A DNA stretch of 64,000 bases from Escherichia coli. Lineage in GTDB: Bacteria; Pseudomonadota; Gammaproteobacteria; Enterobacterales; Enterobacteriaceae. A model generated the notes under the pieces. It was not told the DNA's origin. It did not search any database and was given only the letters and a program-made list of their open reading frames with translations. The first letter of the stretch is position 1. Each line of letters opens with the position of its first letter. Of this stretch, positions 62,709 to 62,810 are shown in pieces. The stretch lies in NCBI RefSeq assembly GCF_003991155.1, contig NZ_CP031293.1. The stretch is one strand, 5' to 3'. The translations under genes were made by a program, and so were the position numbers.

Positions 62709-62780
62709 CTGACTGAAAACCCTAACCCTCTCCCCAAAGGGGAGAGGGGACCGCCCGGCGCAGTTTTTTGGTTTGACATC

Positions 62781-62810
62781 AGCCTCATGGGAGGCTGTAT
62801 ACCGTTTTTT
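62781..62810 (+). terminator. Rho-independent terminator downstream of yihS (cagcctc-atgg-gaggctg + T7)
   Basis: Hairpin followed by TATACCGTTTTTTT. Confidence 0.5.

Follow-up and report, generated by a model that had tools for sequence, protein, structure and literature searches.

Between yihS and yihR, inside the sulfoquinovose gene cluster of Escherichia coli, two stem-loops follow one another in a short spacer, which raises the question whether they work together on the transcript or are unrelated structures that came to lie side by side. The first-pass annotation had suggested the former, i.e. that two consecutive stem-loops inside an operon form an attenuation or mRNA-processing site separating the expression of yihUTS from that of yihRQ, and that the first of them could also be a protein-binding site. 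The DNA analysed here, referred to as the window, is a 64,000-nt stretch from E. coli that is 100% identical to strain 2016C-3878 over 901 bp and carries the cluster yihU-T-S-R-Q-P-O on its plus strand. The labels yihS and yihR assigned earlier were correct, as judged by the list of open reading frames and by the RefSeq annotation of the 100%-identical NZ_CP029747.1. The spacer between the two genes measures 119 bp. Its 5' half reads CTGACTGAAAACCCTAA-CCCTCTCCCC-AAA-GGGGAGAGGG-GACCGCCCGGCGCAGTTTTTTGGTTTGACAT and leads into the second hairpin; its 3' half, CAGCCTC-ATGG-GAGGCTG-TATACCG-TTTTTTT-AATTAAGGTACCTCGT-ATG, ends with the yihR start, preceded by the Shine-Dalgarno motif AAGG at 62816-62819. 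Judging from this stretch, the annotated start codon of yihR in K-12 is probably placed too far upstream. A search of positions 62000-63500 with the Rfam 15 covariance models (E <= 10) returned nothing but a chance group II intron fragment within yihS.

The spacer is probably a composite of two unrelated structures, the remnant of a truncated BoxC repeat and a worn-down, older intercistronic hairpin. The features on which this reading is built are collected in Table 1.

Table 1. Features of the yihS-yihR junction in window coordinates, in order of their first position
Feature	Coordinates	Strand	Sequence, basis and remarks
yihS (sulfoquinovose isomerase) CDS	61467..62708	+	TAA at 62706-62708; ORF list and RefSeq NZ_CP029747.1
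Truncated BoxC / PIT / TMECO type A repeat	62719..62770	-	CAAAAAACTGCGCCGGGCGGT-CCCCTCTCCCC-TTT-GGGGAGAGGG-TTA-GGGT; pattern match and alignment with 9 copies
Hairpin 1	62726..62748	+	CCCTCTCCCC-AAA-GGGGAGAGGG; perfect 10-bp stem, 3-nt loop; first two BoxC blocks
Low-copy flank module	62760..62787	+	GCAGTTTTTTGGTTTGACATCAGCCTCA; median of 3 places per genome
T6 run	62764..62769	+	Complement of the A-run in the BoxC flank; 15 nt past hairpin 1
TTGACA	62773..62778	+	Perfect -35-like hexamer; sequence reading, not called by the promoter scan
Hairpin 2	62780..62797	+	CAGCCTC-ATGG-GAGGCTG; 7-bp stem, 4-nt loop; apical part of the remodelled ancestral hairpin
TATACCG	62798..62804	+	What remains of the right arm of the ancestral stem (ATATGCCG; ATGTCG in K-12); pairing partner lost
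T7 run	62805..62811	+	Ancestral U-rich tail (TTGTT/TTATT) with a 5-T insertion relative to K-12
yihR (aldose-1-epimerase / sulfoquinovose mutarotase) CDS	62828..63727	+	ATG at 62828; ORF list and annotation

The perfect 10-bp palindrome that had first drawn attention to the junction is indeed there. As RNA, hairpin 1 folds with -21.7 kcal/mol (z = -3.6); neither its 23-mer nor a relaxed pattern is expected in shuffled sequence (0.00 in both cases), and of distinct perfect hairpins with 10 bp or more the window holds 6, where 0.4 would be expected. These figures, together with its membership in a multi-copy repeat family, led to the rejection of a chance origin. The stem and loop have the dimensions of an intrinsic terminator (a GC-rich stem of at least 5 bp and a loop of 3-8 nt), but no U-tract follows within 0-2 nt of the stem, the T6 run lying too far downstream. 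A consensus terminator scan of the window called neither hairpin 1 nor hairpin 2.

Read on the minus strand, the hairpin 1 element is CCCTCTCCCC-TTT-GGGGAGAGGG-TTA-GGGT, an arrangement characteristic of the dispersed repeat family known as BoxC, PIT or TMECO, whose literature reportedly includes Bergler in 1992 and Hoyne and Maher in 2000 and 2002. The consensus of the family is CCCTCNCCC-N3-6-GGGNGAGGG-N3-GGGNGAGGG, in which a TTA second loop defines type A (Holder et al. 2015, PMC4666352). Its hairpin part, namely the C-block CCCTCNCCC, a loop of 3-6 nt and the G-block GGGNGAGGG, is found in the window element, and the truncated pattern CCCTCNCCC-N{3,6}-GGGNGAGGG-TTA-GGGT has one match in the window, at 62719-62748 on the minus strand. 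TMECO no. 21 is listed at 4,070,452-4,070,487 of MG1655 (Table 1 of PMC4666352). That interval is the yihR-yihS spacer of K-12, aligns to the hairpin 1 element, and was recovered by the full pattern at 8453-8487 of the K-12 control sequence L006. The alignment shows the hairpin 1 element to be, at the level of sequence, the orthologue of K-12 TMECO no. 21, and thus an already catalogued site.

The dispersed nature of the element was evident from a 51-nt query around hairpin 1, which matched 5,404 of the 5,426 complete E. coli genomes searched, with a median of 15 sites per genome; the listed matches carried no annotated feature, i.e. they were intergenic. Alignment of the window element with 9-10 other copies, including the original BoxC downstream of fabI/envM, revealed a common unit that extends beyond the palindrome into the flank ACCG.CCGG.GCA and a T-run, corresponding to window positions 62749-62770. 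On the minus strand this flank (A-run ... GC.CGG.CGGTC) stands upstream of the core, giving the layout of the BoxC unit of ~56 bp. Because the flank is common to the aligned copies, the BoxC remnant extends over roughly 62719-62770 and includes the T6 run.

What distinguishes the window copy is the loss of its end. The full three-block pattern, which matched all K-12 control copies, had 0 matches in the window. Where a full-length third block GGGNGAGGG would provide the triplex with its Hoogsteen strand, only TTA-GGGT remains, followed by TTTCAG; the third G-block is cut after GGGT, with the deletion junction between 62719 and 62720. Compared with the K-12-type allele, 22-23 bp (TAGGGTGCGGGTTTTCCCCTCA) are missing, which takes away most of this block, so that the intrastrand DNA triplex would no longer be able to form. 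The element is therefore classed as BoxC by homology, lacks the defining triplex pattern, and should form only a hairpin. Partial TMECO deletions that leave the hairpin behind, as well as hypervariable TMECO loci, have been reported (Holder et al., PMC4666352).

As for function, no role and no binding protein of BoxC/TMECO is named in the literature examined, PMC4666352 included. As far as the work of the Maher group is relayed in PMC4666352, PIT elements, in copies other than that of the window, had neither promoter nor terminator activity and no effect on RNA polymerase. Within the pst gene cluster of K-12, the interval between pstA and pstB holds copy no. 19, oriented towards transcription as the yih copy is. 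The suggestion of a protein-binding site at hairpin 1 found no evidence here. Hairpin 1 is neither a locus-specific signal nor a known protein site; present here as a truncated allele, it is an element already known from this position.

Hairpin 2 is of another kind. It folds with -11.9 kcal/mol (z = -3.0; window range -11.9 to -13.8) and is statistically unremarkable when taken alone, since 63 perfect hairpins with 7 bp or more occur in the window and ~28 are expected. Positions 62749-62815, on the right of the spacer, are found in 2,437 genomes as a single copy; occurring once per genome, hairpin 2 was rejected as a component of the BoxC repeat. Its significance, as read from alignments, is drawn from homology and not from statistics: hairpin 2 of the long alleles aligns with an ancestral hairpin between yihS and yihR, which has the core stem ACGGCATAT / ATATGCCGT and a U-rich tail.

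Orthologous junctions were gathered by a YihR protein search and 11 contig look-ups; an exact YihR peptide-pattern scan of contigs gave one E. coli-like contig and distant Actinomyces homologues only. The ancestral hairpin was found in the BoxC-free alleles of E. coli, in Salmonella enterica, Citrobacter sedlakii, C. farmeri and Superficieibacter electus, and in two metagenome contigs whose YihR proteins are 86% and 76% identical to that of the window. The apical part differs in sequence from species to species and pairs in each. Over 8 orthologous junctions the energies of the hairpin alone range from -10.7 to -17.8 kcal/mol, and in 7 of the 8 the eight bases next to the stem on its 3' side include 4-5 T as scored by hand, for example TTGTTTAG, TTGTTATA and TTATTCAA. 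In distant genera (Klebsiella, Kluyvera, C. youngae, Cronobacter, Pantoea) the spacers are 3-34 bp long and hold no comparable hairpin. The consensus terminator scan made no calls at three orthologous junctions (Salmonella, L031, Superficieibacter), for which bulged stems or long loops are the probable cause.

The pattern of substitution suggests that this structure is maintained as RNA. Across the 8 sequences, 84.8% of the cells of the 14-pair outer stem are paired, a share that falls to 31-44% on sliding the partner columns. In four stem pairs both partners changed, one position is G-C, G-U or A-U among E. coli alleles, and where the remaining stem pairs record a substitution on one side only, it yields a G-U wobble. 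Since a G-U pair becomes an A-C mismatch on the opposite strand, these changes argue for an RNA structure on the yihS-to-yihR transcript. With 8 sequences and a largely invariant core, the covariation evidence for an RNA hairpin is suggestive; the mostly invariant core stem means that a function of the palindrome at the DNA level may apply too.

In the window this hairpin has been worn down. The K-12 version, GACAT-CAGCCTC-ACGG-GAGGCTG-T-ATGTC, forms a 12-bp stem of -19.1 kcal/mol and continues with GTTAATTA. Its right arm ATGTCG has turned into ATACCG in the window, by which the outer stem is broken, and five extra T's relative to K-12 have extended the tail to T7. The apparent 7-nt spacer TATACCG is accordingly the right arm of the former stem, left without its partner, and T7 is the former U-rich tail. 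The stem described earlier for the second hairpin is real, but the T run ascribed to it starts 7 nt past the stem and does not abut it. Stem and loop again have terminator dimensions, and the U-tract again falls outside the 0-2 nt that a terminator allows. An additional outer helix of 3 bp (GGU/ACC) would put the stem base beside T7, but its ensemble frequency is only 0.16. With its outer stem broken and T7 set off by 7 nt, hairpin 2 is no canonical terminator; it is a remodelled form of an ordinary terminator-like hairpin between cistrons.

How the two structures came together can be followed in the alleles of the junction, of which three were distinguished: the window type with a 119-bp spacer and a truncated BoxC, the K-12 type with a 137-bp spacer (counted by the conserved ATG) and a full BoxC, and the short type with a 66-67-bp spacer and no BoxC. 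Among 5,426 genomes, ~2,400 have the junction with BoxC, ~1,670 have it without, and ~1,360 lack yihS-yihR. The pair is thus present in about 4,064 genomes, a count that agrees with the long and short yih cassettes described in the literature (PMC12608037), and BoxC is absent from ~40% of the junctions. The window type is a minority, represented at >=99% identity in 85 genomes by the 51-nt core, in 50 by the right flank and in 128 by the 901-bp query; the 51-nt core around hairpin 1 is identical in SMS-3-5 and ~85 other genomes. The short allele folds into a long hairpin, AATAACGGCATATC.AGGCTACATGCC.GGGTATGTCGTTATT, of -23 kcal/mol (z = -6.2). It is single-copy in 1,669 genomes, and the notion that its hairpin is itself a dispersed repeat was rejected on that count.

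Alignment of the alleles shows an insertion of BoxC together with a short flank at the 5' edge of the ancestral hairpin, with replacement of the left arm. The motif ATCAG(C/G)CT, common to the flank and the ancestral hairpin, may be the insertion junction. The inserted flank is a low-copy module with a perfect TTGACA, relatives of which adjoin BoxC at fimH-gntP and REP downstream of glpD, and each of these relatives precedes a different GC-rich hairpin. The surroundings are diverged and mosaic, the 5' part of yihR being 89.8% identical to the K-12 type and the 3' part of yihS 98.3% identical to the short allele.

Published data, obtained on K-12, bear on whether transcription crosses the junction. 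The genes yihUTS have been treated as an operon, with downstream genes in addition (PMC8006165). On sulfoquinovose, the read counts in two replicates were 152/193 for yihU, 234/356 for yihT and 547/612 for yihS upstream of the junction, and 142/148 for yihR, 676/699 for yihQ, 204/212 for yihP and 149/169 for yihO downstream of it; on glucose they were 0-8 across the yih genes, with 0/0 for yihR (PMC12608037 Table S3). From these counts and the annotated gene lengths, reads per kb come to ~465 for yihS, ~155 for yihR and ~340 for yihQ. The read density is hence ~3-fold lower in yihR than in yihS, a drop that lies within the gene-to-gene scatter of the cluster, yihQ being 2-fold above yihR. Binding sites of CsqR are known only at yihU/V and yihV/W (PMC12608037), and no CsqR motif comparable with hairpin 2 was found in the literature. 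That the downstream genes are induced from about zero, with CsqR sites confined to those two places, favours read-through. On the other hand, a band-shift with sigma-70 RNA polymerase on the K-12 yihS/R spacer indicated a single promoter, and the expression of yihR and yihQ was reported to be independent of carbon source (Kaznadzey et al., PMC5816610), which favours a real internal promoter over simple read-through. A literature search for transcript 3' or 5' ends, Term-seq included, found none for this poorly expressed junction in any allele.

That yihR(-QPO) has its own sigma-70 promoter in the spacer, with TTGACA as the -35, the T-run upstream of it as an UP-like element, TATACC as a poor -10 and hairpin 2 as a mere spacer or operator, is possible but rather unlikely. 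The -35 hexamer is perfect, polymerase binding and carbon-source-independent yihR/yihQ expression are on record for K-12 (PMC5816610), and a start near 62810 would give a leader of ~17 nt containing AAGG. However, the best -10-like hexamer, TATACC (62798-62803), is separated from TTGACA by 19 bp instead of 16-18 bp and lacks the final T that a sigma-70 -10 carries along with A2 (the K-12 counterpart is TATGTC), and the promoter scan made no call. An extended -10 promoter was likewise rejected, since the TG directly abuts TATACC in the wrong geometry. The absence of yihR reads on glucose and its induction by sulfoquinovose with the rest of the cluster argue against a constitutive promoter, and ~1,665 short-allele genomes do without TTGACA altogether. 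A role at the level of DNA, in which the BoxC remnant adopts a non-B form (cruciform or partial triplex) and promotes local rearrangement with no function in RNA, is unlikely. It would fit the significantly higher variability of TMECO loci compared with control intergenic sites (PMC4666352), as well as the three structural alleles and the unusually diverged, mosaic flanks of this junction; but the variability association is correlative, the third block that a triplex needs is missing in the window, and in vivo footprinting did not support a stable triplex (PMC4666352).

The joint attenuator or processing site of the first-pass annotation, with hairpin 1 perhaps bound by a protein, must be called quite unlikely as a unit, although parts of the proposal survive. 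Both hairpins fold stably as RNA, an operon boundary does appear in the literature (yihUTS, PMC8006165) along with the lower K-12 read density beyond it (PMC12608037), and one hairpin with a U-rich tail is conserved across genera with wobble and compensatory changes. It is for the two hairpins as a dedicated pair that no evidence emerged: they have separate origins, hairpin 1 being a dispersed BoxC element that is dispensable at the locus and hairpin 2 a degraded structure that the scan does not call. Neither is directly followed by a U-tract, the folds reveal no mutually exclusive alternative pairings, the PIT copies covered by the account in PMC4666352 were reported inert for termination, and the literature examined gives BoxC/TMECO no function or binding protein. 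The opposite extreme, palindromes arisen by chance and devoid of biological meaning, has a negligible probability; 7-bp hairpins such as hairpin 2 are indeed common in the window, but hairpin 1 belongs to a repeat family and is expected 0 times, and hairpin 2 shares its ancestry with a hairpin that several genera retain.

The composite reading of a BoxC remnant beside an older hairpin suggests the following course of events. On yih mRNA, hairpin 1 would be a very stable but passive stem-loop that is read through and has no dedicated regulatory role; at most it might act like REP hairpins and delay 3'-to-5' degradation of the yihUTS message upstream of it. The ancestral hairpin would have been a leaky intrinsic terminator or a 3'-end stabiliser marking the end of yihUTS. 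K-12 kept a 12-bp stem, while in the lineage of the window the outer stem was broken and the tail grew to T7, now 7 nt off a 7-bp stem. Termination in the window would then be weak, and yihR-yihQPO would be transcribed mainly by read-through from the CsqR-controlled yihU promoter, to which a weak internal promoter using the insertion-borne TTGACA may contribute. A leaky boundary element between yihS and yihR is plausible.

A stronger version can be conceived, in which the hairpin conserved in Escherichia, Salmonella and Citrobacter is a functional, tunable boundary, acting as a leaky terminator or a barrier to decay and fixing the ratio of yihUTS to yihR-QPO, that was rewired when the BoxC insertion donated a -35 and with it a yihR promoter, the alleles being expression variants; this is very unlikely. 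If it were true, the insertion of BoxC plus flank in ~60% of E. coli cassettes would have weakened a terminator and given yihR its own promoter, and the junction alleles would be natural expression variants of sulfoquinovose catabolism made by a repeat element. Apart from this, the striking palindrome in the sulfoquinovose cluster is a catalogued repeat, and annotations and models of yih should not call hairpin 1 a terminator or an operator. The older intercistronic hairpin recognised beside it, which is conserved across genera, may mark where the yihUTS operon ends. The series of three alleles with no, full and truncated BoxC can be used to test the effects of BoxC/TMECO on transcription and on local genome stability.

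Compared with known systems, the ancestral hairpin resembles leaky intrinsic terminators in its GC-rich stem base (CGGC/GCCG) and the U-rich tail directly after it (UUGUUUAG, UUGUUAUA, UUAUUCAA). It differs in that the ancestral tails are imperfect (4-5 U of 8) and escape a simple scan, and the window has in addition the 7-nt gap between stem and T7. With sigma-70 promoters created by repeat elements, the junction shares a perfect -35 within an inserted flank and the polymerase binding reported for the K-12 fragment, whereas the window offers no acceptable -10 at 16-18 bp. Hairpins of the REP/BIME type let RNA polymerase pass and can shield the upstream mRNA from 3' exonucleases. The likeness of the junction to such elements, e.g. 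that between malE and malF, lies in dispersed GC-rich intergenic palindromes within one transcription unit and is a functional analogy only, as BoxC belongs to an unrelated sequence family and its stabilising effect is only putative. The closest relation is that to BoxC/PIT/TMECO itself. The window element departs from the family in the third G-block cut to GGGT, which leaves the three-block pattern incomplete, and in a perfect stem with T where a G mismatch is usual. It agrees with the family in the CCCTCNCCC block, the 5-nt loop, GGGAGAGGG and the type A second loop TTA, in the flank (..CGGNCGGTC plus the A-run) and in its intergenic, multi-copy occurrence, and the local deletion that left a hairpin behind is itself a known fate of such elements.

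The coding DNA on either side of the yihS-yihR junction was compared between alleles by aligning window 62300-62708 and 62828-63200 with L002, L003 and L004, and it proved to be mosaic, with unusually high divergence between alleles. The 5' part of yihR shares 89.8% identity with the K-12 type, which carries a full BoxC, while the 3' part of yihS matches the K-12 type at 95.6% identity and a strain with the short allele, which has no BoxC, at 98.3%. The combination of divergence and mosaicism in these alignments suggests that old haplotypes and recombination are involved at the junction.

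The annotated start of yihR in K-12 (NC_000913.3 4070401) is an ATG within the right arm of hairpin 2, the second stem-loop of the spacer, giving a protein of 308 aa, and the equivalent codon in the window (62799-62801) reads ATA. The conserved start codon lies further downstream, at the ATG at window 62828, which is preceded by AAGG 8 nt upstream and gives 299-300 aa, and PGAP places the start of yihR in other strains at the equivalent ATG. In K-12 the annotation has probably placed the start too far upstream.

Gene order after yihR differs among relatives. In E. coli, yihR is followed by yihQ, and this GH31 gene also comes next in relatives from further afield (Klebsiella, Kluyvera, C. youngae and Cronobacter). 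In Salmonella, Citrobacter sedlakii, C. farmeri, Superficieibacter and two more relatives (orthologous junctions L030-L035, about 1750-2500 in each), the next gene encodes a TauE/SafE-family protein, not yihQ. Homologues of YihR with 35-49% identity were also seen in genomes of Actinomyces, Schaalia, Georgenia and Oceanitalea (L017-L029). The 2.9-kb contig JAEWTL010000022.1, labelled 'MAG: Bacillota bacterium', contains an E. coli K-12-type yihS-BoxC-yihR junction; its YihR is 94% identical to that of the window, and the contig is probably a mis-binned Escherichia fragment.

The short flank module inserted together with BoxC at the junction adjoins BoxC in the window and at fimH-gntP, and adjoins a REP downstream of glpD. 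At each of the three sites it is followed by a GC-rich hairpin, a different one each time. The module is low-copy (median of three places per E. coli genome) and matched no named repeat. Perfect hairpins with stems of at least 10 bp and loops of 3-8 nt number six distinct cases in the window, namely the truncated BoxC hairpin and five others, against 0.4 expected.

Coordinates of the flank module, the comparison BoxC copy and the other perfect hairpins
Feature	Sequence	Position	Detail
Flank module	window	62760-62787	GCAGTTTTTTGGTTTG[A/T]CATCAG[C/T]CT[C/G]A
Flank module	L014	about 248-276	same motif
Flank module	L015	about 250-278	same motif
BoxC/TMECO no. 19 (L012)	K-12, NC_000913.3	3,908,495-3,908,530	pst gene cluster, pstA-pstB spacer
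Perfect hairpin, at least 10 bp	window	3576-3600	
Perfect hairpin, at least 10 bp	window	5070-5096	
Perfect hairpin, at least 10 bp	window	10392-10414	
Perfect hairpin, at least 10 bp	window	20385-20412	
Perfect hairpin, at least 10 bp	window	38489-38513	

TMECO no. 19 is oriented with respect to transcription just as the yihS-yihR BoxC copy is, and its pstA-pstB locus would serve well as a point of comparison when possible effects of BoxC on polycistronic mRNA are considered.
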